A stretch of 64,000 nt of DNA from Escherichia coli (GTDB taxonomy: Bacteria > Pseudomonadota > Gammaproteobacteria > Enterobacterales > Enterobacteriaceae): assembly GCF_030013595.1 (NCBI RefSeq), contig NZ_CP122768.1. One strand, 5' to 3'. How positions within the stretch are numbered: the first letter of the stretch is position 1; each line of letters starts with the position of its first letter. A program made the translations under genes and the position numbers. Positions 13,938 to 47,903 of this stretch are shown one piece after another. The notes beneath the pieces were generated by a model that was not told where the DNA came from, did not search any database, and worked only from the letters and a program-made list of their open reading frames with translations.

Positions 13938-13977
13938 GCCCCTATCGTTATAATACACGGTAGGGGCGTTTTTGTTT
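13938..13977 (+). terminator. Strong hairpin plus T-run immediately upstream of the integrase gene (a TATAAT hexamer sits in the loop)
   Basis: GCCCCTATCG-ttataataca-CGGTAGGGGC followed by GTTTTTGTTT. Confidence 0.6.
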
Positions 13978-13986
13978 GGAAATGGT

Positions 13987-15666
13987 ATGAAAACTAAACT
14001 ATATTCGTATATTCGCTTCTCGTCTATGCGTCAGAATGATGGTTCGAGTTATGAACGGCAAATCAGGATGGCGAGAGAGGTTGCGGCAAAGTATGACCTT
14101 GAACTGGTAAATGATTATCAGGATCTGGGTGTATCTGCGTTTAAGGGTGCTAACTCTAAAACAGGGGCGCTATCTCGTTTCCTTGATGCAATTGGTAGAT
14201 CCGTTCCTGTTGGTAGCTGGCTATTCATTGAAAACTTGGACCGCTTATCCCGTGCCGATATTGTCAGTGCGCAGGAGTTATTCCTTTCAATCATCCGTAG
14301 GGGAATAACCATTGTTACTGGCATGGATAACAAGATCTACTCGCTGGATACTGTTACCGCTAATCCGATGGACCTGATGTTCTCCATCCTTCTATTCATC
14401 CGTGGTAATGAGGAAAGTCAGACTAAGCGCAATCGTACTAACTCAAGCGCATTGATTAAGATTAAAGCTCATCAAGAAAATCCCCAGAATCCGGCAGTGG
14501 CAATCGAGGAAGTTGGAAAGAATATGTGGTGGACTGATACCACATCTGGTTATGTGCTTCCTCATCCGGTCTTCTTCCCTATTGTTCAGGAAGTTGTGGA
14601 ATTACGCAGGAATGGACGGTCAACCGCCGAGATACTGGATCACCTTAACGCGACATACACACCACCACCAGCCGCAAGTCACAAGAGGCATTCAAACTGG
14701 TCACGGGCAATGATTGAAAGGTTGTTCCATACCCGCGCTTTGATTGGTATCAAGGAAATCTCTGTAGATGGCGTTAAGTATGAGTTAAAGGATTATTATC
14801 CTCGTGTGCTAGATGACGCTGAGTTTTATCACCTTAAGAAAAGCATTGGTGTTAGAGCATGTAACTATGGAGACAAGGAAGAAGTTAAACCGATCCCCCT
14901 GCTTAGTGGTGTTAATCTGCTGAAATGTGATCATTGCGGTTCCGCTATGGTTAAGGTGAAAGGAACAAACAGACGGCCTAACCAATATCGTTATTCATGC
15001 GATGCAATGCGCTCTAGTCGTATTGAATGTGTGCATACAAACTGGAGTTTTCGCGGCGACCAATTAGAGAAAGCTGTATTGCAATTGCTGGCTGATAAAA
15101 TCTGGATTGCTGAAGATAAGGCTAATCCGGTTCCGGCTTTGAAAGTACAGATTGATGAAATATCACGCAAGATTGATAACCTGATTGCCCTTTCTGCTAT
15201 GACAGGAGCAACGAAGGAGCTAGCCGATCAGATTACTACCCTCAATAGCGAGCGTGAAACACTCTACAATCAGATCAAGATGGCAGAAGAGGAAATGTAT
15301 TCTGTGGACTCTCAAGGCTGGGAGAAGCTCGCAGAATTTGATTTAGAAGATGTTTACAACGAGGATCGCATTAAGGTCCGGTTTAAGATTAAGCAAGCTC
15401 TAAAACGGATCGGGTGTAGCAGGATTGACAAGTACAAAAACTTGTTTGTACTGGAATACATCGATGGCAAGACCCAGAGAGTTGTAATAGAAAATTCAAG
15501 AGGACCGAGGAAAGGCCGGATCTTCGTTGATTTGAAGACTATCAATGATAGGCAGATTCTGGAGAGTAACGGGCTTGTTCTGCATCCATGTTTAGACATG
15601 CTGACAGATAAGAACTGGAAACCAGAAGAGGAAATACCAGGTCCATTACAGGAATTTGGAATTTAA
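13987..15666 (+). CDS. Large serine recombinase (phage integrase)
   Basis: N-terminal resolvase domain with catalytic-Ser context YSYIRFSSMRQ. Also a recombinase domain, a Cys-rich zinc ribbon (CDHCGS...YSCDAMRSSRIECVH) and a coiled coil. ATG at 13987 is preferred over the TTG at 13972. Confidence 0.85.
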   Translation: MKTKLYSYIRFSSMRQNDGSSYERQIRMAREVAAKYDLELVNDYQDLGVSAFKGANSKTGALSRFLDAIGRSVPVGSWLFIENLDRLSRADIVSAQELFLSIIRRGITIVTGMDNKIYSLDTVTANPMDLMFSILLFIRGNEESQTKRNRTNSSALIKIKAHQENPQNPAVAIEEVGKNMWWTDTTSGYVLPHPVFFPIVQEVVELRRNGRSTAEILDHLNATYTPPPAASHKRHSNWSRAMIERLFHTRALIGIKEISVDGVKYELKDYYPRVLDDAEFYHLKKSIGVRACNYGDKEEVKPIPLLSGVNLLKCDHCGSAMVKVKGTNRRPNQYRYSCDAMRSSRIECVHTNWSFRGDQLEKAVLQLLADKIWIAEDKANPVPALKVQIDEISRKIDNLIALSAMTGATKELADQITTLNSERETLYNQIKMAEEEMYSVDSQGWEKLAEFDLEDVYNEDRIKVRFKIKQALKRIGCSRIDKYKNLFVLEYIDGKTQRVVIENSRGPRKGRIFVDLKTINDRQILESNGLVLHPCLDMLTDKNWKPEEEIPGPLQEFGI

Positions 15667-16309: not shown

Positions 16310-16585
16310 GTGGCTTCTGTTTCTATCAGCTGTCCCTCCTGTTCAGCTACTGACGGGGTGGTGCGTAACGGCAAAAGCACCGCCGGACATCAGCGCTATC
16401 TCTGCTCTCACTGCCGTAAAACATGGCAACTACAGTTCACTTACGCCGCCTCTCAGCCCGGTACGCACCAGAAAATCATTGATATGGCCATGAATGGCGT
16501 CGGATGTCGCGCCAGTGCACGCATTATTGGCGTTGGCCTCAACACGATTTTCCGCCACTTAAAAAACTCAGGCCGCAGTCGGTAA
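16310..16585 (+). CDS. insA: IS1 InsA
   Basis: 91 aa, [39 protein letters not shown]... Confidence 0.95.
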
Positions 16586-17007
16586 CCTCGCGCATACAAC
16601 CGGGCAGTGATGTGATTGTCTGCGCTGAAATGGACGAACAGTGGGGCTACGTCGGTGCTAAATCACGTCAGCGCTGGCTGTTTTACGCGTATGACAGGAT
16701 GCGGAGGACGGTTGTGGCGCACGTCTTCGGTGAACGCACTCTGGCCACACTGGAGCGTCTTCTGAGCCTGCTGTCGGCCTTTGAGGTCGTGGTATGGATG
16801 ACGGATGGCTGGCCGCTGTATGAATCACGCCTGAAGGGAAAGCTGCACGTTATCAGCAAGCGTTATACTCAGCGCATTGAGCGGCATAACCTGAATCTGA
16901 GACAACATCTGGCAAGGCTGGGACGGAAGTCACTGTCGTTCTCAAAATCGGTGGAGCTGCATGACAAGGTCATCGGGCATTATCTGAACATAAAACACTA
17001 TCAGTAA
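16504..17007 (+). CDS. insB: IS1 InsB' frame (expressed as an InsAB' transposase by -1 frameshift)
   Basis: 167-aa ORF in the -1 frame relative to insA, overlapping it at AAAAAAC. Confidence 0.9.
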
Positions 17008-30058: not shown

Positions 30059-33000
30059 TTATTTAGTTGCTTTGAGTTCGGCAATTTCTTTCTGTAATGC
30101 TTCGATCTGGGCTTTATATTTGGCGTCCATTTCCTGAATAGCTTTAATAATCAAGGCATTAACAGCGGAGTTAGAAATAGTCTTAATTGCTTCTGGATTT
30201 TCTGGATCTTCGGTGGATTGAATACCTACTGCTTCCGGCAACACTTCTTCCAGATCCTGAGCAATAATACCTACTTCGCGTTTAATCACTGTGTCATCAG
30301 AAAGAGATTTAACTTTATCGTAGGTGTAGACTTTCAGGGAGTTTACTTTCTCTAATGCGCCGTCCTGTAATTCTTCCTTGTTGATTTTAAGGCGAGCATC
30401 AGAACGAATGTACACATCGTTAAAGCTACCGTTTCTGGATGCGCTTAAATCACCAGCCGCGTTAAAGTCAAACGTTGCATCGTGTACGTGCATACGCACC
30501 ATAGCATTTCCGATAGTACCGCTAGGAACATGTACACCCATTGCTGCGATATGATATTTACCTTGATGGGTTGCTTTCCATACGTTATGAGCGGAATCGG
30601 TTGATTGTTGACAGTCGACCTGAATACCAGAAGCACGATCACGCCAGCTAGTCCAACTACCACCAGCAACGCTACCACGAATAAGACCATTACCGCCACC
30701 GGATACAGTGCCCGTTTCAAGGTGAATCATCTTACCGCCGAATTTCCAGACTTCGGTTTGTTTCTCACCACGGAAGCGAATAACACCAGCGTCATCGCAA
30801 TACATCAAGCCCAACTCTAAACCGTTTGGATCTCTAAACCAGATGTGCTTATTGCCAGCGCGTTTAAACGTAATATCAGCACCAGTTGTTGTGATATTGC
30901 TAGCAACGTTTAGACTACCCGCCATAGAGAACAGAATAGGTCCAGTGCCACCCTGAGTACGTTCAGTATACCAGTGATAACTTGTAGCATCCTTACATTC
31001 AAAAACCTGTTTGCGTTGCTCGTTACCCCATGTATGGAGACTAAATTGCGAAGAAGAACCACGGTTAGCATCAAATGCAATTTCACCAGATTCTACACGT
31101 ACAAAGCCTCTAAAACGTGTTGTTATGTTACCAGTACCCATAGCACGTTCAGTGATAAAATGTGCGCCCTGACTGTCTTCAATCTGTAGGATGTTATCGC
31201 GACCGTTATTGCTATCGCCCCAATGGTTAAACCGGAAGTAATCGCGGGAATTTAATCGCCCAGCGTCGAAAGTCAAATGCCCTTTCTTAATGTAAACGTC
31301 ATTACTAAAGCGAGCGGCTTTGCTTGCACGTTCTAAGACTAATGCACCTTCGTTACCATCACCACCCAAAGTAACATTACCGCTACCAAGATGGTAAATG
31401 AACGGACGATAGCCGTTCCAACTACCAAGTTTATCATTTTCGGCAGTAGACAGAAGATATACGTTTTGACCATCATTACGCCAGAATGCACCATAATTAC
31501 CGTAGATCATGCGGTAAGCGTCGCTATTCATTGAGATGAATTGAGCGTTAGTATAAACTCGTTTTGTGTTACCGGTTGCAAGTTCGATCTGTCCGTCTAT
31601 GTGGTGACGAATAGAAGTACCACCTACATCACTATACCATTCAAAAACGTTAGTATCAGCATTACCATAACCGATCCACCCTTGACGGGTAATAGATCCA
31701 GTCCGATTATCTTGAAACGTAATATGGTTGGATTGACCAGCAGGACGCCGCAAGGTAATAACATTACTACCGCCACCCAACATCATTCGACCAGAAAGAA
31801 TATTACCTTTATGAGTCCCAGCAATAGAGCTACTAGATTCAACGGTTAGAATCTCCTGAGCATCTGTACTACCCGTGGCGAGTCGATAAGTAGAACCCTG
31901 AACCGTCTCATGCCAGATCATTTCATTATAGTTACTGCGGAATTTACGAATATATTTCCGACCAGTACCCCTATCATTACTCAAGTGAACAATATCATAA
32001 CTATTTTGTGTGTTATCGTCAAAACTCAACACACCTCGTTTGTTTTCGGTGTTGAAAAGAGTAATGATGCGCCCATCAATAACACCAACAGAAGGTTTAA
32101 TTAACGTGGCTTCCGGTGTATCGTGAACAGTCAGATTAACATAAACACTTTTACCAAATTCAACAATAACGTTATCAGTGTAACGCTGATATTTCACATA
32201 AATGTCATAGTTATCACCGGATGTATTGACGGCAAATACATCAAAATCTTTGACGGTATTTCGACGATATGCAACTACGTTAAGTCCTTTAGGTCTATCG
32301 TTACCACTACGGAGAAGAATTTCTACTACATCAACTTGGTCATATGCCGTAACGTTGTAACCATTACCACCATGAATACGGAAAAACACACTACGCCCGT
32401 TTTGTGGAATTGTTGCGGTTGCCAATTTGAAATATGCAGATACGTTTTCGCTAGAATTGGGAACAGACATAACGACGTTTTTAACAAACATCTTATCAAC
32501 TTCGGCTTTGGTGTATGCACCAATCTCGCCAGGAGTCGGCTTATCACCTTCGTGATACATCTTATAGCTAAAGTTCTTCTGTCCTTCTCTATCAAAACCA
32601 TAGGTTTCAACACGAGATCCACCAGACGCATAACGGAAAGTAAATCCGCGACCGTGAGCTTTACCGGCAGAGTGAGGAACGTTAAGAGTTAGATCCATGA
32701 GTCCATCTTGACCATTGGTACGGAAAGCACCAAAGTAGTTAAGATCTCTCGCTGTCTGGTCTTCCAAATAGTTAGCTGTTTTGGTTAACAGATACCCGCC
32801 ATGCTTAGTGTTGGTATTCTTCTTGATGTAAAGAGCATCGTTACTACCTTCAATACCATCAATTCGACGGTTAGCGGCTGCGATCGCTGAATCAGTATCA
32901 GTTTTGTTTTTGTCAACCTTTGCGTTAATAGCGGTATGGTTGCTATTCACCGTCCCTGTAAGGTTACTGATTTTAGTATCAACATCTTTCTTGTTGTCGG

Positions 33001-33520
33001 AAACGACCTTTTCAATCGCTGTTTTGTTAGCTGCAACCGTGCTAGTTAAGCTAGAAATTTTGTTATCTGCATCGGTTTTATTTGCAGTAACAGTTTTAGT
33101 CAAGTTGCTAACGTTGGTGTTAGTGGTATTAACTTTGTTGTTAATCGCGGTGTTATTGTCATTAACCGTCGTGGTTAAAGCTGCGATTTTATTGTCCGCA
33201 TCTCGTTTATTATTTGCTACAGTAGTTTCTATAGCTGATTTGTTAGATGCAACTGTCCCCGTAAGGTTATTGATCTTAGTATCAGCATCGGTTTTATTTG
33301 CCGCGATAGTCGCATCAGTAGTTTTCTTGTTATTGTCTACTTTTGTGTTTAAAGCATTATGACTTTCAGGAGAAACACTTACTTGAACTACTGCGTTATT
33401 TTTATCTTTGGTATAAATTACATGGTCTGCCATCTGAATAGCGATTTCACCGACCTGTAATTGTTCCGGCGTTGGCTTTTTACCAGCCGTCTGTGTGCGT
33501 TTAAATTGGATCGACTGCAT
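30059..33520 (-). CDS. Long side tail fibre with C-terminal intramolecular chaperone (peptidase S74-like) domain, 1153 aa
   Basis: Fibre-type N-terminus (MQSIQFKRTQTAGKKPTPEQLQVGEIA). About four 40-aa NKTDAD-x-KI-x-LT-x-TV repeats. The C-terminus (SDARLKINKEEL...VGIIAQDLEEVLPEAV...coiled coil) is typical of self-cleaving chaperone domains. Confidence 0.75.
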   Translation of the reverse strand: MQSIQFKRTQTAGKKPTPEQLQVGEIAIQMADHVIYTKDKNNAVVQVSVSPESHNALNTKVDNNKKTTDATIAANKTDADTKINNLTGTVASNKSAIETTVANNKRDADNKIAALTTTVNDNNTAINNKVNTTNTNVSNLTKTVTANKTDADNKISSLTSTVAANKTAIEKVVSDNKKDVDTKISNLTGTVNSNHTAINAKVDKNKTDTDSAIAAANRRIDGIEGSNDALYIKKNTNTKHGGYLLTKTANYLEDQTARDLNYFGAFRTNGQDGLMDLTLNVPHSAGKAHGRGFTFRYASGGSRVETYGFDREGQKNFSYKMYHEGDKPTPGEIGAYTKAEVDKMFVKNVVMSVPNSSENVSAYFKLATATIPQNGRSVFFRIHGGNGYNVTAYDQVDVVEILLRSGNDRPKGLNVVAYRRNTVKDFDVFAVNTSGDNYDIYVKYQRYTDNVIVEFGKSVYVNLTVHDTPEATLIKPSVGVIDGRIITLFNTENKRGVLSFDDNTQNSYDIVHLSNDRGTGRKYIRKFRSNYNEMIWHETVQGSTYRLATGSTDAQEILTVESSSSIAGTHKGNILSGRMMLGGGSNVITLRRPAGQSNHITFQDNRTGSITRQGWIGYGNADTNVFEWYSDVGGTSIRHHIDGQIELATGNTKRVYTNAQFISMNSDAYRMIYGNYGAFWRNDGQNVYLLSTAENDKLGSWNGYRPFIYHLGSGNVTLGGDGNEGALVLERASKAARFSNDVYIKKGHLTFDAGRLNSRDYFRFNHWGDSNNGRDNILQIEDSQGAHFITERAMGTGNITTRFRGFVRVESGEIAFDANRGSSSQFSLHTWGNEQRKQVFECKDATSYHWYTERTQGGTGPILFSMAGSLNVASNITTTGADITFKRAGNKHIWFRDPNGLELGLMYCDDAGVIRFRGEKQTEVWKFGGKMIHLETGTVSGGGNGLIRGSVAGGSWTSWRDRASGIQVDCQQSTDSAHNVWKATHQGKYHIAAMGVHVPSGTIGNAMVRMHVHDATFDFNAAGDLSASRNGSFNDVYIRSDARLKINKEELQDGALEKVNSLKVYTYDKVKSLSDDTVIKREVGIIAQDLEEVLPEAVGIQSTEDPENPEAIKTISNSAVNALIIKAIQEMDAKYKAQIEALQKEIAELKATK

Positions 33521-34440: not shown

Positions 34441-34863
34441 TTAAAAACGCGCTAGATAAGAAAATTTAAGGCTAAGTGTCCCAACGATACCCCCATCACT
34501 AGAATCATCGTCATAATCGGTATTAGAAGCTACTGGAGTGATATCTGAAATTGAGAAGCCCAAATCTTTAAAACGTGGGTTATCCGGCTGAATCTGGATT
34601 ATCTGGCAAATACCCTCATGAATTTTGGTTTCATGAATCTGAGAATACAATTGCATTTCGATAACGCATTCAGCTTGCATTGCATTACCGCCACGGACCC
34701 TATTGTAAGTCTCATTCATTCCGGTGATCCAACAAACCACGTCATCACTAAAGCCTTGCTGAGTTTGTTCTACGTTTAAAGCCAGACCTAAATCTTGTTC
34801 GATAATATCCTGCAAGGCGCGTTTGATTTTCAGTCTAGGCATATTATTAACGGTAGCGAGCAT
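34441..34863 (-). CDS. Head-tail/tail completion protein, about 140 aa
   Basis: Start at MLATVNNMPRL (AGGGGG SD). Called on position between the adaptor and tube genes. Confidence 0.35.
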   Translation of the reverse strand: MLATVNNMPRLKIKRALQDIIEQDLGLALNVEQTQQGFSDDVVCWITGMNETYNRVRGGNAMQAECVIEMQLYSQIHETKIHEGICQIIQIQPDNPRFKDLGFSISDITPVASNTDYDDDSSDGGIVGTLSLKFSYLARF

Positions 34864-39427: not shown

Positions 39428-41332
39428 TTAGAACGATGTTACCCAGCTACGGCCTCTATTTGGGCGTCTGACGATGTTTTGACGTTGTGGTCGTGTGATT
39501 GGCTTAGTTTCTTCGATTTGCTCGTCAGATTGCGATTTAGGAGCTTCTACAGGTTCTTCTGGTTCACGGTTCAAACTATCTTTGATGGCTTCGAGTTTTT
39601 CCCATGACATTTTATTGAGTACATGACGAGAAGCAGCATAGGAATAAGCCAGGCAGTCCAACGCTTCGTTTCGTGTTTGTCCAACTTTTACCCAACGTGT
39701 GGTATTACCCTGCCGTTTCAACTGTTCAGAAAGCAATTGCTCGCAATAGTCATCAGGAACGTCACCAATCTGGAAGACAGTGTGAGGATCGCCATCTCTC
39801 AAGTTCCGGTTAATCATTTCACGGATCATCGTTTTAAGGTTGTTTACGCCCAGAATTTTAAGGGTAAAACCACCCGTTCTTGTGTCTTTTACCGGAAGGA
39901 TTGGTGCATCAACATTGCTTGCGCCTTTAATGGCGGTTAGATTTTGCCACCGACTACAGAATCGATAGATCACGTTTGTAGCTCGTCCGTTCGATGAGTC
40001 CACGAAAGCAGATAACATCGGGATTCGTTCACCGGATCGGGTATAGAATTTAGCTTTCAGGAAGTTGTAAAGCTGGTTATATGCTGGTGATTCGTGGCGT
40101 TCGCAGTTCACATCATAGAATGATCGGTGATCAACTACGCATAGCCCTTTACGAGAAATACCCAGCAAGGTAGATTCCAGACGGTCTTTTTGCTGGTCAA
40201 CTCCACCTACCAGAGCCAGTACATCATCAGGAATATTGTCTAGGCTAATATCAGTTTTCAGCGTTTCTAATTCGTCGGCTGTGCGGTCTTCGTTAAGATC
40301 ATCGAAGGTTTCACCGAGGACTGTATTGTAGAACGTTGCCAGGGACATATTCGCGTAGCTATCAGCAAAGTCCACCACACACGCACGGATAGAACTAAAC
40401 GGAGACATAAGGCGGTTAGCATGAAAACCGATTACTTCCGCGTTTGGTTCGGTGGCGACCCATTCTCCCTGTCCAACAGCACGTAGGCGATCACCCTCGG
40501 TCCAATCGGTTTCACATTCAGGGCAACGGTAAACGGCTGTATCTGGGTTGGGTAATGATTTACCGTTAATCGTATGCCAATCGAAATGTACGTTACTCCA
40601 TTCCATTACGTGCTTGTGTCCGCAATGCTGGCAAACGACATGATATTTTCTCTTATCCGAGAGTTCCCATTGTTGGTTAATCGCCCCATCACGAGCGGTT
40701 GGAGTGGAAGCAATTACGATCCTTGCATCTTCCCCGAAAGTGGTTGCGCGTTGTTCCGCTAGTTGGATCGGGTTCCCTTCGTCTGACTCATCAGCCGCAT
40801 CAACTTCATCAAGAATAATCAAAGGGAGTGTTTTACCGCGAAGATGTGACGGACTATTCAACGACATGAAATACATAAACGATCCGTTACGAAGCTGAAT
40901 AATCGATGAGTTGTTAACGGCATTGCGATCTGATTTGTCGGTGATCATCGCCTTTAATTCTGGTGTTGCCTCTAATACTGGCTTCACCTTACCAGCGATC
41001 CAAGAATTTAGTTCTCTAACGTTACTTTGCAACACCCCAATATTAGTAGGGTTACTCGCGATCCGATGGAAGATAATTCCGTTAAGAATCATGGTCTTAC
41101 CCAACTGTGCCGAACATTTAAACACAATTTTTCTACGGTCTTCGGTGATCGCGTCCATCATTCCACGTTGGAAGGGATGCAATTTAATTAGCGATCCGGC
41201 TTTAACACCATCGGTTGCAACTACATTAGCCTCTACCCATTCGCTAGGTTTCATCGTTTTAGGTGGGCGAATTGCCGCAGAGATATTTTTAAGAATCTTT
41301 TTTAATTTTGCCTTGTTCGAAATCAGTTTCAT
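39428..41332 (-). CDS. Terminase large subunit (lambda GpA family)
   Basis: 634 aa. Walker-A-like CSAQLGKT, DEVD Walker B and CxxC...CxxC (CQHCGH...CPECE), as in GpA-type terminases. Confidence 0.85.
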   Translation of the reverse strand: MKLISNKAKLKKILKNISAAIRPPKTMKPSEWVEANVVATDGVKAGSLIKLHPFQRGMMDAITEDRRKIVFKCSAQLGKTMILNGIIFHRIASNPTNIGVLQSNVRELNSWIAGKVKPVLEATPELKAMITDKSDRNAVNNSSIIQLRNGSFMYFMSLNSPSHLRGKTLPLIILDEVDAADESDEGNPIQLAEQRATTFGEDARIVIASTPTARDGAINQQWELSDKRKYHVVCQHCGHKHVMEWSNVHFDWHTINGKSLPNPDTAVYRCPECETDWTEGDRLRAVGQGEWVATEPNAEVIGFHANRLMSPFSSIRACVVDFADSYANMSLATFYNTVLGETFDDLNEDRTADELETLKTDISLDNIPDDVLALVGGVDQQKDRLESTLLGISRKGLCVVDHRSFYDVNCERHESPAYNQLYNFLKAKFYTRSGERIPMLSAFVDSSNGRATNVIYRFCSRWQNLTAIKGASNVDAPILPVKDTRTGGFTLKILGVNNLKTMIREMINRNLRDGDPHTVFQIGDVPDDYCEQLLSEQLKRQGNTTRWVKVGQTRNEALDCLAYSYAASRHVLNKMSWEKLEAIKDSLNREPEEPVEAPKSQSDEQIEETKPITRPQRQNIVRRPNRGRSWVTSF

Positions 41333-42523: not shown

Positions 42524-43363
42524 TTAGATACCAAAGACAGCAAGTGATCCGGCGTTCTTACGAATCAATGCGGCGGTATTATTAACGATTGCACGAGCAT
42601 TGTTAGGCTGCGGTAATTTCAAAGTTGCTATCGTCTCTTCCTCAATCAAGCCCAATTCAACCAGCACTGGTAAACAGTCAGTTGTGAACTCAAGCTGACC
42701 ATGTGCTGATTGTCGGGCATACATGTAAGCAGGAGGAAGAACATCATAGCCACAAGGCTTACCAGAAGCATCCAGACGGCGCTCAATGTGTTTAGCCTCA
42801 CACAATCCCTTAAGAATACGTTGTACCTTCGTAGAGCCTCGTTTTTCGCCCAATAAGCGGGTTAAGCTGTGCCCGTCAATGGCACGGCGAACATGAAGAT
42901 CAATTAATTGTTCTTTTTCTTCCGCTAAAGTCAGAGCCTTACGAATCCAATCAACTTCGGTCATCTTGCTTGCGTCTGGGAAAGCGTTATTCTTTAATTC
43001 TTCATTTTCTTTCTTCAAACGCTGCCATTCATCAACCAGCATTGCGGTATAAACCGGATCGGTCTGTGCGATAACAATGTAGCTATCACGTTCAGTCAGA
43101 AGATAAACTTCAATTGGTTTGCCTTTACGGCCTAAACGGTCAGTTTTTGACCAAAACGCCACTGGCGGTTTGGTTACAATTTGAGCTTCAACCAGACGAT
43201 CAACCGTTCTCATAATATCGGTGTGACGGTTTTCACGCCCCATTAGTTCAGCAATACGCCAGGTAGAAATTGATAATTCTTTCTCTACAGAGTCATTTGC
43301 AGCAGTCAGGTCAACAGAAGAAGCAGTTTTAACAGCAGTATTCATAGTAGTAACAGTATTCAT
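42524..43363 (-). CDS. Rha-family phage regulatory protein with C-terminal extra domain, 279 aa
   Basis: The region ISTWRIAELMGRENRHTDIMRTVDRL...IEVYLLTERDSYIVIAQ resembles the Phage_pRha domain. Confidence 0.55.
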   Translation of the reverse strand: MNTVTTMNTAVKTASSVDLTAANDSVEKELSISTWRIAELMGRENRHTDIMRTVDRLVEAQIVTKPPVAFWSKTDRLGRKGKPIEVYLLTERDSYIVIAQTDPVYTAMLVDEWQRLKKENEELKNNAFPDASKMTEVDWIRKALTLAEEKEQLIDLHVRRAIDGHSLTRLLGEKRGSTKVQRILKGLCEAKHIERRLDASGKPCGYDVLPPAYMYARQSAHGQLEFTTDCLPVLVELGLIEEETIATLKLPQPNNARAIVNNTAALIRKNAGSLAVFGI

Positions 43364-43807: not shown

Positions 43808-43901
43808 GGTCAAATAGGTTCAAAGTTGTCAAGTGCGATAATCATAAAAAAGTTTGAAGATATTGTCAAATACCACTTGACAAGACACCAAAGGGTTGAC
43901 C
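43808..43901. promoter_or_regulatory. Dyad-symmetric operator/promoter region built from TTGACAA/TTGTCAA and GGTCAA/TTGACC half-sites
   Basis: GGTCAA-N12-TTGTCAAG (43808-43833) is mirrored by CTTGACAA-N12-TTGACC (43876-43901). In addition, TTGTCAA-N7-TTGACAA forms a palindrome at 43863-43883. Confidence 0.55.
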
Positions 43902-43905
43902 TAAC

Positions 43906-44094
43906 TTACAGCATATCTAAGCCTTCATCGTAACCGTAGAAGCCATTCTGAGAAGAGAAGCAGATTGGTGCGTAGTCGTCGTCATCTTCGTCTTGTTCAT
44001 CTTGTTCTGGGGCTTCCTGAGCGGTTTCTTTGCCGTAGTTAAACATGGCTTCATCCAGTTCATAGTGGAAATCCTCTAAAAGAAAGTGAATCAA
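43906..44094 (-). CDS. Small very acidic protein (up to 62 aa; start uncertain)
   Basis: ORF ending ...EQDEQDEDDDDYAPICFSSQNGFYGYDEGLDML. It has a TTG start in the track, or an internal ATG at 44046. Confidence 0.4.
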   Translation of the reverse strand: MIHFLLEDFHYELDEAMFNYGKETAQEAPEQDEQDEDDDDYAPICFSSQNGFYGYDEGLDML

Positions 44095-44741
44095 TCTAAT
44101 ATTATTTATAAAGAGAAAATTCTTGTTATTATGAAAGGAGTGATCTGGTAGAGTCCAAAACTGGTCTGTACTTGAAAGGTGATTGGATTCAGTCGGGCAA
44201 AGCCCTCCTTCATGTTTTGATTAAATCATCATCAAAACGAAGAAGTATCTTTAGAATATAAGATCTTTCTTTTGGAGAAATAATAATCAGGAAGCAATTT
44301 GGCAACCGAAGGTTGCAATCCCGAAGGGATAACCAATACCTTTCTAGAAAGTGATTGTTACTCACTTCGTTCGTTTACTAGAATCAGTTATCATCTGGTA
44401 TTAAATCCCTTTCTAAGAAAATCCTTTCAAAAGTGATTCTCGATGCCACGCAGTGGCGTCGCAGACGTTTGGGAGTGAGCGAAGCGAGCGAGCAAACTAG
44501 TTAATTCCTTCTAAGACCATCTAGTATCATCTAGTTTAAATTAGTTGTTACTAGAAGCAATTGGTTGGCGCTTCGCGCAGTCGGGCTAAAGCCCTCCTAA
44601 TTATCTTTTTGGTTATTTGTTGTTTTTAGTTTTACACATGAGCGTAGCGAATGTGTTATATAATATCTATGCACGCCCAATCCCCCGCTTTTTCCCCTCA
44701 CTAAGTTAATGTTTTATAAAGAGTTTTTCTCACCAATCCTT

Positions 44742-44930
44742 TTCGGGGGCAAATTTCAGGGGCAAAAATTAGATTTTCAGGGGCAAAAATAGTGGGTTTC
44801 AGGGGCAAAAATGAGGGGCAAAATCACTGTTTCCCAGAATTTCAGGGGCAAAAATAGTGGGTTTCAGGGGCAAAAATGGGATGTGGAATCTAGGGGATTT
44901 TGGTTCAGGGGCAAAATTCAGGGGCAATTT
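44742..44930 (+). repeat. Iteron array: 9 direct copies of TTCAGGGGCAAAA (7 with a perfect TTCAGGGGCAA core)
   Basis: Copies start at 44742, 44755, 44776, 44798, 44811, 44841, 44863, 44904 and 44917. A 38-bp block at 44776-44813 is repeated exactly at 44841-44878. Confidence 0.9.
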
Positions 44931-44968
44931 TCATAGTGTAGGGCTAGTGTAGGTTTGAAAATCCTTTG

Positions 44969-44997
44969 TTGACACTGTGTAGGATCGGTGGTATACT
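44969..44997 (+). promoter_or_regulatory. Near-consensus sigma70 promoter P1
   Basis: TTGACA (44969-44974), 17-bp spacer, TATACT (44992-44997). A GTGTAGG box lies in the spacer. Confidence 0.65.
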
Positions 44998-45025
44998 TGA
45001 AAATTCGAGATAAATATGTTATAAT
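44997..45025 (+). promoter_or_regulatory. Near-consensus extended -10 promoter P2
   Basis: TTGAAA (44997-45002), 17-bp spacer with TG at 45017-45018, TATAAT (45020-45025). Confidence 0.65.
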
Positions 45026-45029
45026 ATTT

Positions 45030-45409
45030 GTATTGAAAGTGAAAATTTACCGATTTTCCTTCCTATTGTTATCACCGTGTTAAATTGTTATATGTCTGTG
45101 AAGATTTGGATCTGAGAGAAAATCTTGTAACAAATCTTTACAATTCATAGCTCAATTAATGCTCACCGCTTTAGCAAAAAGTGCTATGCCTTTTTCTAAA
45201 TTGATTGAATATACATCAATTTGGTTAAATCGTGTTCTTCGCTTTAGCAATTCGTGCTGTGGTTTAACACATTTAACACGTCTGATAACATCTGAATAAC
45301 ATTTTAACATATCTCTGTTATAAATACATATATAAGAGATAAATGTGAGGGGTTGAAAAATAAAATACAATCCCATATAAATAATAGTGAGCGGTTAACG
45401 CTCTTTTTT
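45030..45409 (+). ncRNA. Putative roughly 380-nt untranslated leader / regulatory RNA ending at a terminator
   Basis: No RBS-preceded ORF lies between the P1/P2 promoters and the terminator at 45389-45409. Contains two CGCTTTAGCA-N5-TGCT hairpin repeats. Confidence 0.3.
45389..45409 (+). terminator. Rho-independent terminator upstream of the 45446 gene
   Basis: GAGCG-gttaa-CGCTC followed by TTTTTT. Confidence 0.75.
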
Positions 45410-45445
45410 AAGAAATCATTAATCCACATTGTAGGAGGATTCGAG

Positions 45446-45628
45446 ATGGCACGACCTGTTAAGTTCACTCGCGAAATCATCTTAGAAATGGCTAAACGCT
45501 ACTTTGAGTTAACGCCGGGTGTGAGAATTGAAGAGTGGTTTAAAAATGAGGGCATCGATAAATCAACCTTTCATAAACTGCTAAAACGATATGACATTAA
45601 AGTGAAGATTGAAGCTACCGTTTGGTAA
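45446..45628 (+). CDS. Small HTH protein, 60 aa (paralogue of 41499-41732)
   Basis: MARPVKFTREIILEMAKRYF...GIDKSTFHKLLKRYDIKVKIE. AGGAGG SD 7 nt upstream. The longer track ORF start was rejected. Confidence 0.65.
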   Translation: MARPVKFTREIILEMAKRYFELTPGVRIEEWFKNEGIDKSTFHKLLKRYDIKVKIEATVW

Positions 45629-45742
45629 TCAACTTTGACTGAGAATTATATGATGGCTTTAAAAAAGAAAAAGCCTCCTTTGCTGCAACAAGGGAGGCTT
45701 GAAATGAACAATTAAAACTAACTTTCCATAGGAGTATTTATA

Positions 45743-46684
45743 ATGTTATTTTCCGCTAACTTTTTCACTAACGAAGTAACCAACGCTAAAGCAGTTATCA
45801 AATTTGGCACCGAAGCAAACAAGAAGATTCAGCCGAAAGTTGTTGCTCATGTTTCCTTTGCGCAGCAGAAATCCGCTTTCGCTGGCTTTAAAGCACATCG
45901 TGAAGCACTGATCGCGGCTGGCTTTGGTGTTGACGGTAAACTGCCTAACGGCATTCGTAAAGCAATCGACCGCGTTAAACCAGTTAAAGACGTTGCAGTA
46001 GACCACATCGTTACTTTTACCGTTAAGAACTCTTCTGAACTGTTCCACCTGGTTATTGCTGGTGATACTGCTATCGTTTCCGCTCCTAACATGGATTTTC
46101 AGGATACCGCTGATTGCCAGATCACCTTCGGTCGTCGTAAAGAAGTTACCGGAAAAGCTAAACTGAACTTCACTAAATCCGGCAATCCTTACTTTGCTGT
46201 ATTCTTTAACAGCCACGCTACCGAAAAAGAAGTTGTAGAACTGGTTGCTTATGAAGGTGAAGAGAAAGAACGTATTGAATCTTGCGAAGCATTTCTGGAA
46301 CTGGAAGCACAGGTGAATGCTGTTTCTCCGGTTGTTGAAGATCGCTTTGCTGCACTGGAAGCACAGATCGCAGAACTGAAAGCTGCACTGGAAGAAAAAG
46401 ACCAGATTATCGAAGCACAGAAAGCTGAGATTGAAGAACTGAAAGCTAAAGAAGTTGCTCCGGTGGCAGTAGTTGAAAACGCGGCTGATGAGGCCGCAAA
46501 TGATGAAGTAGAAGTGAAAATCGATGTGATGCGTGATCCGATGGCTGCACTGCAATTACTTCGTTCTTTTAAGGGCAAATCTCATTTTTCTAGTGATGTA
46601 GAAGATGAGGAAGAAGAACAGAAACGCAATGCTGCAATGCTTCATGATGAAATGTACGGTACTAACTTTTCTTACTGCCAATAA
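45743..46684 (+). CDS. Highly codon-optimised protein of unknown function with central coiled coil and acidic tail, 313 aa
   Basis: AGGAG SD. Codon usage of the highly expressed type, which generates long shadow ORFs on the opposite strand. Flanked by hairpins at 45673-45699 and 46690-46707. Confidence 0.7.
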   Translation: MLFSANFFTNEVTNAKAVIKFGTEANKKIQPKVVAHVSFAQQKSAFAGFKAHREALIAAGFGVDGKLPNGIRKAIDRVKPVKDVAVDHIVTFTVKNSSELFHLVIAGDTAIVSAPNMDFQDTADCQITFGRRKEVTGKAKLNFTKSGNPYFAVFFNSHATEKEVVELVAYEGEEKERIESCEAFLELEAQVNAVSPVVEDRFAALEAQIAELKAALEEKDQIIEAQKAEIEELKAKEVAPVAVVENAADEAANDEVEVKIDVMRDPMAALQLLRSFKGKSHFSSDVEDEEEEQKRNAAMLHDEMYGTNFSYCQ

Positions 46685-46779
46685 AAAAAGGGACTCCGAA
46701 GAGTCCCTAGTAAGTTTAGGTTAGGTTTGCACAACAAAGATGAGGTTATAATGAATATAATGCTACATTATTCTTTAAA

Positions 46780-46811
46780 GCCAGAAAAATAACCGCCCCC
46801 TTCGGGGCGGG
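46780..46811 (-). terminator. Rho-independent terminator for the 47903-46969 operon
   Basis: Minus strand reads CCGCCCC-gaag-GGGGCGG followed by TTATTTTTC. Confidence 0.7.
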
Positions 46812-47345: not shown

Positions 47346-47903
47346 TTAAGACACATCAAATTCATCGTCTTCTTCTGGTTCTTGTTCTTCCGGTTCATCC
47401 ATTAATGGTAATTCTTCTTCCTCGTCTTCTCCCAAATCTGCATTTTCGAACAAGTCCCCTACTTCATTTAAACGACGCTCGATGATCTCCCTTAGCTTAT
47501 TCTTTAATGTTTTCTGGTCATTGGCAGATTCGAGAATTTCTAGGGCATCGATCGTACAAATCTGCAAAATAGTCTGCTTCACTTTCCCGCAATATTCCGC
47601 TAGTTGCTGTTCTACATAACCGACAGGAATCAGGAGGTTCATTTTTTCCTGATTCTCTCGTTCGGCTGCATCTGCCATTGCTCTTTCTCTGCGGAGACGT
47701 TCTTGATCAATCGCTTCTTTGATTGAAGTTTGTTTAAGTGGGTTAATTACGTTCTTTAGCACCCAATCGCAACCTTCCTTTGCCGGAACACGCCTCTTAT
47801 TGGTATTGTAAGGTAGTCCCCTTTCTAACCATCGCTTACCGCCACCATTCAATGTATAGCCATATAAACGGGAAATTTCTGTAAGGGTTAATTCTTCTTT
47901 CAT
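47346..47903 (-). CDS. Nu1-like terminase small subunit candidate (N-terminal wHTH, central coiled coil, acidic tail), 185 aa
   Basis: The N-terminus LTLTEISRLYGYTLNGGGKRWLERGLP and the ERLRRERAMADAAERENQEKMNLLIPV segment resemble Nu1/TerS architecture. The gene is not adjacent to the large subunit. Confidence 0.45.
   Translation of the reverse strand: MKEELTLTEISRLYGYTLNGGGKRWLERGLPYNTNKRRVPAKEGCDWVLKNVINPLKQTSIKEAIDQERLRRERAMADAAERENQEKMNLLIPVGYVEQQLAEYCGKVKQTILQICTIDALEILESANDQKTLKNKLREIIERRLNEVGDLFENADLGEDEEEELPLMDEPEEQEPEEDDEFDVS

Follow-up and report, generated by a model that had tools for sequence, protein, structure and literature searches.

Marbox-like repeats in the putative early-control region of an Escherichia coli prophage family

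Described systems and the prophage locus

Promoters of the Escherichia coli mar-sox-rob regulon carry a marbox, the asymmetric DNA site of MarA, SoxS and Rob, for which a 15-nt MarA-site consensus, GCAHWWWWTGYYAAA, has been given (PMC6900184). The marbox is found either in reverse orientation at -56 to -85 (class I) or in forward orientation at -36 to -55 (class II) (PMC12052159), marRAB being of the first class and micF, whose layout has been described (PMC9178005), of the second. Another short element is known from T1-like phages (TLS, T1, Rtp, Rogue1): the TLS genome paper reports a 21-nt intergenic repeat of unknown function, aaATAGCACnnnTTGnTAAAA, with 'T' and 'G' spacer classes, oriented in the direction of transcription some 76 nt ahead of start codons (PMC11447400). 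In this work we analyzed 64,000 nt of the E. coli contig NZ_CP122768.1 (assembly GCF_030013595.1), hereafter the window, a piece of chromosome that contains a prophage, and in particular a 1.35-kb non-coding stretch of that prophage (44100–45445), bordered on one side by late and regulatory genes transcribed leftward and on the other by a short operon transcribed rightward. Here two near-consensus promoters precede a long non-coding leader, which contains two repeats conforming to the marbox consensus and ends at a terminator shortly before the first operon gene; a gene for an orphan protein of 313 aa follows, and a direct-repeat array lies upstream of the promoters. Our model is that this interval may form the rightward early-control region of an uncharacterised E. 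coli temperate siphovirus family with a serine integrase and a gpA-type terminase, in which an attenuator is combined with marboxes and with an array-cargo pair; taken as a whole, we give it about an even chance of being correct.

The two repeats that a first-pass annotation of the sequence had placed at 45167–45185 and 45240–45258, 73 bp apart, are present as described, and both are like the sites of the regulon promoters. Box 1 (ATAGCACTTTTTGCTAAAGC, 45168–45187) agrees with the MarA-site consensus at 15/15 positions and box 2 (ACAGCACGAATTGCTAAAGC, 45241–45260) at 14/15; both lie on the minus strand, in reverse to the operon, and for box 1 this is also the orientation of the marRAB marbox, with which it shares 15/19 bases in MG1655. 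Read on the minus strand the two copies are ATAGCACTTTTTGCTAAAG and ACAGCACGAATTGCTAAAG; the 64 kb contain no other match to GCAHWWWWTGYYAAA with at most one mismatch. In contrast to the regulon promoters, the prophage boxes lie within the predicted leader transcript, 140–220 nt downstream of strong promoters; moreover, they lack a consistently placed core promoter, and their binding is a prediction. They likewise match the T1-like repeat, as cATAGCACTTTTTGCTAAAG and cACAGCACGAATTGCTAAAG on the minus strand, box 1 fitting the 'T' spacer class of TLS. Whereas a T1-like genome carries 9–21 copies, co-oriented with the genes at about 76 nt upstream of the start codons, the prophage, an unrelated temperate phage, has 1–2 copies that point against the operon. 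It is the T1-like element that reproduces the exact geometry of micF (20-mer, 18 bp, TAnnnT).

In other respects the locus resembles attenuators and antitermination leaders such as HK022 put, lambda nut-tR1 and pT181 repC, with which it shares a strong promoter, a long structured leader and a terminator before the first gene. It differs from them in that there is no sequence or Rfam similarity, and neither an antisense RNA nor an antiterminator protein was found in the prophage. A constitutive promoter, a 5' region devoid of open reading frames (ORFs), premature termination upstream of early or replication genes and the absence of an obvious protein repressor are features held in common with P4 CI and P1/P7 c4, whereas homology to these and detectable repeated complementary target boxes are lacking. 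Finally, direct-repeat arrays with units of 7–15 bp, situated directly upstream of the promoter of the operon of the co-varying protein, are known from P1 RepA-incC, R1 ParR-parC and the pSM19035 omega heptads. The prophage array resembles these, but the cargo proteins of the prophage family are orphans without similarity to Rep, ParR or omega, and array and gene are separated by an independently exchanged module of promoter, leader and small helix-turn-helix (HTH) gene.

Predicted marboxes in the leader and in T1-like phages

The comparative set consists of 34 related loci retrieved from E. coli genomes and from IMG/VR. Within it the region appears as a mosaic of independently swapped modules, namely the direct-repeat array, the promoter module, the leader, the small gene and one to three cargo genes. 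The two main types of leader, A (that of the window) and B, are mostly unalignable and have only three short blocks in common, yet a reverse marbox is found at a fixed distance from the ATG in 33 of the 34 loci: type A leaders have boxes at -204 and -277, type B leaders a single box at -138, and the copy corresponding to box 2 is kept in both. The marbox-specific positions are invariant over the same 33 loci, and the degenerate positions vary, as does the base closing the hairpin that each repeat could form. This is the pattern of a protein-DNA site and not that of a boxB-like hairpin. Against the 19-nt marbox consensus AYnGCACnnWnnRYYAAAY, reportedly due to Martin et al. 1999, both boxes score 18/19. 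Matching to these consensus sequences thus leads us to predict that the repeats are marboxes to which MarA, SoxS or Rob would bind.

As for the binder, a phage-encoded MarA-like factor was considered and rejected, since a phmmer search detected no MarA homologue in either the prophage or the T1-like phage AHS24 (best E 0.26), which leaves a host protein as the default candidate. The only regulator-type protein common to the two is a Rha-family N-domain, with 26% identity. We infer that host stress regulators, or a factor of the same specificity, probably feed into the region. What such binding would bring about may be a stress-responsive internal promoter, an unusually spaced leftward antisense promoter, repression or DNA bending.

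The link with T1-like phages came from the sequence of repeat 2, the 17-mer CTTTAGCAATTCGTGCT of which occurs exactly in 82 IMG/VR stretches, many of them from T1-like Drexlerviridae such as AHS24. The 46-kb genome of AHS24 has 17 matches to the marbox consensus, compared with 1.8 expected (a number reached in 0/100 shuffles), and nearly all of them are co-oriented with the adjoining genes. T1-like phage genomes are enriched about 10-fold for marbox matches. Among 125 distinct sites in the viral loci fetched, 93 have a TAnnnT hexamer 17–19 nt past the 20-mer, and in 74 the distance is exactly 18 nt. In E. coli micF the robbox 20-mer is likewise followed after 18 nt by TAGAAT, the G of its GCAC standing at -47 or -48. 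Consensus and geometry together suggest that the T1-like repeat may be a class II-type marbox promoter. The prophage boxes do not follow the T1-like layout, which is defined by orientation with transcription, a -10-like hexamer at 18 nt and a start codon at about 76 nt. A different arrangement was noticed at T1-like tail-fibre genes (loci L020, L023 and L030), where a terminator and an extended -10, TGnTACAAT, are followed 3 nt after the -10 by a reverse marbox and then by the ribosome-binding site; this copy could serve in repression or as a 5' stem-loop. The existence of these copies means that the reverse arrangement is not unique to the prophage. Our literature searches found no paper linking marboxes or Drexlerviridae with MarA, SoxS or Rob, and searches with the motif sequences returned unrelated matches only.

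That two unrelated groups of coliphages are wired to the mar-sox-rob stress regulon of their host is a tentative proposal, to which we attach somewhat less than even confidence. If it is true, T1-like virulent phages would rely on class II marbox promoters for the majority of their transcription units, explaining the question left open by the TLS work, and the temperate family would hold one or two marboxes in the leader that controls entry into the early or replication operon. The activity of Rob, MarA and SoxS, and with it bile salts, salicylate, antibiotics and oxidative stress, would then influence phage development, and the prophage early genes could have a trigger independent of the SOS response. 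Provided that the marbox assignment holds, it would also show how T1-like phages recruit host RNA polymerase, it would give Rob, an abundant protein of unclear role, a phage-related function, and it predicts that mar, sox and rob status affects phage susceptibility. This status is often altered in antibiotic-resistant clinical isolates, and T1-like phages are common laboratory and industrial contaminants as well as candidates for phage therapy. The result on T1-like phages, obtained on the side, may matter more than the prophage map itself.

Promoters, leader RNA, operon and repeat arrays

Both of the tandem near-consensus promoters reported in the first-pass annotation are found, each agreeing with the consensus at 11/12 positions. 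P1 (TTGACA-N17-TATACT, 44969–44997) has a predicted start near 45004 and P2 (TTGAAA-N17-TATAAT with an upstream TG, 44997–45025) near 45032; P2 is probably the main promoter. The 64 kb contain four sites with at least 11/12 matches, compared with 1.6 expected, and the occurrence of two such sites within the local 2 kb is reached by only 0.2% of shuffles. A promoter of the TTGACA-N17-TATACT type is present in each of the three unrelated variants of the promoter module, which indicates that the function is conserved and not just the sequence. In several type A relatives the -35 of P2 is the full consensus TTGACA, giving TTGACA-N17-TGnTATAAT in L088 and others. Around the promoters there are also TGAAAAT boxes at 44956, 44998 and 45040, 42 bp apart, with an inverted copy at 45052. 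They lie just upstream of the P1 -35, over the P2 -35 and just downstream of the P2 start, and are candidate operators for a putative repressor. A third 11/12 promoter, TTGACA-N17-TATGAT, is located on the minus strand at 43841–43869, directed toward a 110-aa gene, the Rha gene and the terminase.

Transcription from these promoters would produce a leader RNA (45004–45409, plus strand) of 406 nt from P1 or about 378 nt from P2, with 30% GC. The absence of coding capacity that had been noted for this leader of roughly 380 nt is borne out: among ORFs of at least 15 aa on both strands none has a Shine-Dalgarno match above 3/6, and 1-nt insertions or deletions in close relatives interrupt the longest of them. 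The leader is predicted to be highly structured, and more so on the transcribed strand. The minimum free energy of the window leader (type A) is -103 kcal/mol on the plus strand (z -6.84) and -84.7 kcal/mol on the minus strand (z -3.40); for type B the corresponding z values are -3.61 and -0.63. The type A alignment shows 110 pairs conserved over 16 relatives. In type B (17 sequences, 61 predicted pairs) 99% of the cells are paired, 12 pairs vary by a single pairing-preserving transition, mostly to G.U, 3 are broken by transitions, and three pairs show compensatory changes on both sides; shuffle controls are borderline-positive, the observed values being reached in 1–10 of 500 shuffles. Altogether this is moderate evidence, on which we accept that the leader is a structured plus-strand RNA.

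At the end of the leader stands the hairpin GAGCG-GTTAA-CGCTC-T6 (45389–45409; ΔG -8.3 kcal/mol), a 5-bp stem with four GC pairs, a 5-nt loop and a U6 tract, which thereby has the GC-rich stem and U-tract of an intrinsic terminator or attenuator. It had been claimed to precede the small HTH gene, and it does so at a distance of 36 nt from the ATG. The position of the hairpin is kept with four different stems, GAGCG/CGCTC, AGAGC/GCTCT, AGGGC/GCTCT (with G.U) and GCCGTC/GACGGC, counting in the outlier locus L106, which has a further version of the leader. The layout of promoter, leader, terminator hairpin and small gene is seen again in about 35 related prophages, with three or four versions of the leader that for the most part cannot be aligned. 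Every version consists of 300–410 non-coding nt and a terminator-like hairpin about 30–40 nt before the start codon. From this arrangement we infer that promoter, leader and terminator would constitute a transcribed regulatory leader acting as an attenuator. A 6-nt complement to the 5' arm of the terminator, GCUCAC, was spotted by eye near 45161. Just upstream of the terminator, a conserved block, GGGGTTGAAA...CCCATATAAATAATA (45349–45386, plus strand), could be a stem-loop or a promoter-like site. It includes TTGAAA-N17-TATAAA (45353–45381; 10/12), whose predicted start is the first base of the terminator stem, and the block around it, GGGGTTGAAA...CCCCATATA, is also found in type B leaders, at their 5' end. 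A sigma-54 promoter was also considered for the context of one motif and rejected by eye for its wrong spacing.

The first gene of the operon (45446–45628, plus strand) is preceded by the ribosome-binding site AGGAGG (45433–45438) and encodes a three-helix protein of 60 aa, conserved in all relatives with 56–92% identity. The gene itself is thus as previously annotated, and its HTH label is plausible and weakly supported. The match to HTH_Tnp_1 (E=0.003) is below the family cut-off, the AlphaFold model shows three helices with a predicted local distance difference test score (pLDDT) of 72, and the Foldseek neighbours are mostly DNA-binding domains, largely of HTH type, all with E>1; no solved relative was found by sequence. 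On these grounds we consider the protein to be probably HTH-like. Between this gene and the next there is a hairpin (45671–45700, ΔG -19.5 kcal/mol) flanked by an A-run to the left and lacking a T-run to the right, which is terminator-like on the minus strand and could be a processing or stabilising structure on the plus strand.

The cargo gene of the window (45743–46684, plus strand) encodes the 313-aa protein, an orphan composed of a β-rich N-domain, a long coiled coil and an acidic tail. Searches of Pfam, PHROGs and NCBIfam gave coiled-coil noise only, tblastn against phages gave nothing, and a contig scan of genomes yielded no confirmed relative. A word-indexed search returned exclusively near-identical E. 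coli copies among its best 120 matches, and an exhaustive HMMER search found 11 matches among 1.84 billion representatives, of which 2–3 are diverged full-length relatives. The AlphaFold model is poor (pLDDT 59), and Foldseek found nothing with E <0.6. The frequency of optimal codons of the gene, 0.78, is the highest in the prophage (major capsid protein, 0.71), which suggests very high expression. For the cargo proteins of the other array types the searches were uninformative too.

The array, on which the first-pass annotation is silent, extends over 44742–44929 (plus strand) just upstream of the P1 region and consists of about 9–11 direct copies of (TTCA)GGGGCAAA(AT). Eight copies of GGGGCAAA within it are exact, compared with 2.7 expected in the whole window. 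The same array is present in 19/19 related loci that have the 313-aa gene and in none of the loci without it, and no locus with a GTGTAGG array has this gene. GTGTAGG arrays (6–12 copies) for their part co-occur in 14/14 cases with a set of three genes (177, 146 and 80 aa) absent from the window, and two further cargo types have arrays of their own, built from ACGGGGA and from GTTCAAATGCTAC. The four array types, represented by the window, L002, L092 and L106, each go with a different and unrelated cargo set, the promoter-leader-HTH module between them being exchanged independently. Array type is independent of leader type, of HTH type and of TerS similarity. The array as a binding site of the HTH protein or of TerS was rejected for its independence of these two. 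Since arrays co-vary with the cargo and not with these three, they are most likely binding sites of cargo proteins, and the GGGGCAAA array is accordingly predicted to be bound by the 313-aa protein in an autoregulatory loop, an origin-type loop, or both.

Three GTGTAGG boxes (44936, 44947 and 44977, within 44934–44983, plus strand) had been noted, the last of them as operator-like. The boxes are real and belong to a genuine repeat family, of which the window has 7 copies compared with 4 expected, the clustering and not the total being the notable feature. The operator function fares less well: the cognate genes are absent from the window, and in close relatives the box of the P1 spacer has a degenerate form, ATGTAGG or ATGTCGG. 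For these two reasons the boxes look vestigial, presumably left by an array of the kind that replaces the GGGGCAAA array in sister prophages.

The mechanism that we propose for the region is as follows. P2, aided by P1, both being sigma-70 promoters, would transcribe the AT-rich leader of about 380–410 nt, which, being non-coding, would fold extensively on the plus strand and end at the weak terminator 36 nt before the HTH-like gene and the swappable cargo gene behind it, here that of the 313-aa protein. Most transcripts would stop at this terminator, and conditional read-through would set the levels of the HTH-like and cargo proteins. The marboxes would provide an input through a weak internal class I-type promoter, through leftward antisense transcription or through DNA bending, and the 313-aa protein would bind the GGGGCAAA array upstream of P1 and thereby close an autoregulatory or origin-type loop. 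The result would be a map of an early switch, comprising promoters, leader RNA, attenuator, host-factor sites and an array-protein pair, in a previously unannotated region.

Several points weigh against this model. The binding claim is founded on consensus matching, and L106 has the same architecture without a marbox. Furthermore, neither of the canonical promoter geometries is consistently found at the prophage marboxes. On the minus strand class II geometry was rejected, there being no TAnnnT hexamer at 18–19 nt from the boxes (the sequence at 18 nt reads ATGAAT and AATTGA), and the boxes are not followed by an ORF on this strand. On the plus strand the centre of box 2 is near -59 of TTAACA-N18-TAACAT (45273–45302), which is class I geometry; this internal promoter candidate is weak and speculative and is confined to type A, the box of type B being without a partner. 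Covariation within the leader is modest, type A sequences being too alike for such a test. The terminator, with 5 bp and -8.3 kcal/mol, is weak and could be a minor pause only, and start sites, termination efficiency and read-through are all predicted. A start of the TTGAAA-N17-TATAAA site at the terminator stem would, moreover, make the hairpin a 5' stem-loop rather than a terminator.

Alternative explanations and prophage context

The main rival is a replication-origin module, which we consider unlikely. In such a module the 313-aa protein would be the initiator and bind the GGGGCAAA copies as its iterons, unwinding would take place in the 30%-GC leader, transcription from P1/P2 would activate or prime the origin, as do lambda pR and ColE1 RNA II, and the marboxes would be architectural sites of Rob, a protein first found as an oriC-binding protein. 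The strict co-variation of arrays and cargo is that of initiator-origin pairs, an AT-rich tract adjoins the array, and the prophage has neither a GGGGCAAA copy elsewhere nor another recognised initiator, primase or loader, a UvsW-like helicase being the only candidate of this kind. A DnaA-box-like sequence, TAATCCACA (8/9), is located at 45420–45428, between terminator and ribosome-binding site, but it is found in some variants of the HTH module and not in all. On the other hand, the leader fold, which is strand-asymmetric and depends on G.U pairs, speaks for selection of the RNA and not for duplex unwinding, the spacing of the array copies is irregular (13, 21, 22, 30 and 41 bp), and no similarity to an initiator could be detected for the 313-aa protein, whether by family, fold or named homologue; its codon usage suggests a high expression that is unusual for Rep proteins.

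Less probable still is a trans-acting immunity RNA of the P4 CI or P1 c4 kind, in which the constitutively made leader, or a piece processed from it, would silence the lytic genes of the lysogen by pairing with phage transcripts. Such systems typically combine consensus promoters and a terminator with a structured RNA devoid of ORFs, and no CI-like repressor was recognised among the prophage proteins by profile searches with Pfam, PHROG and NCBIfam. However, Rfam gave nothing over the whole window at the gathering threshold and nothing relevant over 44000–45800 with E up to 10, and the leader has 8 complementary 11-mers in the remainder of the prophage, compared with about 7 expected (exact 11-mers only). 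The exchange of leader types independently of the flanking modules is, in addition, hard to square with a trans target outside the cassette. The earlier suggestion of nut-type antitermination or RNA-based immunity thus holds for its architecture of promoter, leader, terminator and gene, RNA immunity being unsupported and the nut site dealt with below.

Control by a counter-transcript seems improbable as well. According to this explanation the marboxes and TATATT (45208–45213) would drive a leftward antisense RNA, dependent on MarA, SoxS or Rob, over the 5' half of the leader and P1/P2, and this RNA would modulate attenuation as in pT181 and pIP501. The element points with transcription in every other context found, and the minus-strand order of marbox, TATATT/TACATT and ATCAAT/ATCGAAA is loosely like that of marbox, TATAGT and CATCGAAACGA in T1-like phages. 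Against this, marbox and hexamer are 27 nt apart in type A and 24 nt apart in type B instead of 18, a spacing that is unconserved and without class II fit, the zwf-type forward arrangement having about 30 nt. No terminator for a leftward RNA is evident, and the minus strand of type B folds no better than chance.

A lambda-type nut site, as the first-pass annotation had it, in which each repeat would be a boxA with a boxB hairpin (5-bp stem, 5-nt loop) placed between early promoter and terminator and loading an N-like antiterminator for passage through the latter, is very improbable: the boxA-like CGCTTTAG matches CGCTCTTA at 5/8 positions and is not conserved (TCTCTTTAG or CTCTTTAG in relatives, with CGC replaced), the stem loses its closing pair on going from TGCTA through TGCTG to TGCTC (type B), the loops AAAAG and ATTCG are not GNRA-like and interconvert (L095), the invariant bases are those of the marbox, the element in T1-like phages lies upstream of the start that it serves, and Pfam, PHROG and NCBIfam detect no N-like protein in the neighbouring genes, although a small divergent N could escape them.

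The prophage that carries the attenuator-like region is 36 kb long (about 12.4–48.3 kb of the window) with 42% GC, and is flanked here by a ydcR-like gene and hicB. The family occupies two chromosomal sites, this one and, in relatives, a position within ycdX beside ghrA. The prophage genes comprise a serine integrase (13972–15666), a UvsW-like helicase gene split by IS1 (16504–17007), lysis, tail and head genes on the minus strand, a gpA-type large terminase (39428–41332), a Rha-family protein (42524–43363) and the small terminase TerS (47346–47903); terminator hairpins at 46689–46810 mark the end of the rightward operon and of the p94/TerS unit that converges on it. A 2.4-kb query covering the region has no megablast match among INPHARED phages or PLSDB plasmids, and with a 24-kb query only a T-even-like tail-fibre segment matched. 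Among 5,426 complete E. coli genomes the 2.4-kb query is matched in 62, in 25 of them over most of its length, and the genes under the match are annotated there as hypothetical protein.

Some further observations concern the prophage at large. A gene for a 154-aa acidic-tailed protein of relatives (L001, 19191–19655) has suffered a deletion of about 310 bp in the window copy (43906–44370), which together with the IS1 in the helicase gene suggests prophage decay. The ARAGORN program reports a 91-nt tRNA-Gln (34586–34676) within the head genes and antisense to the gene strand, which is possibly spurious. The tail-fibre gene (30059–33520) has about 83% DNA identity to gp37, the distal long tail fibre of RB49/Phi1-like T-even phages, and this identity implies exchange between temperate siphoviruses and virulent myoviruses.

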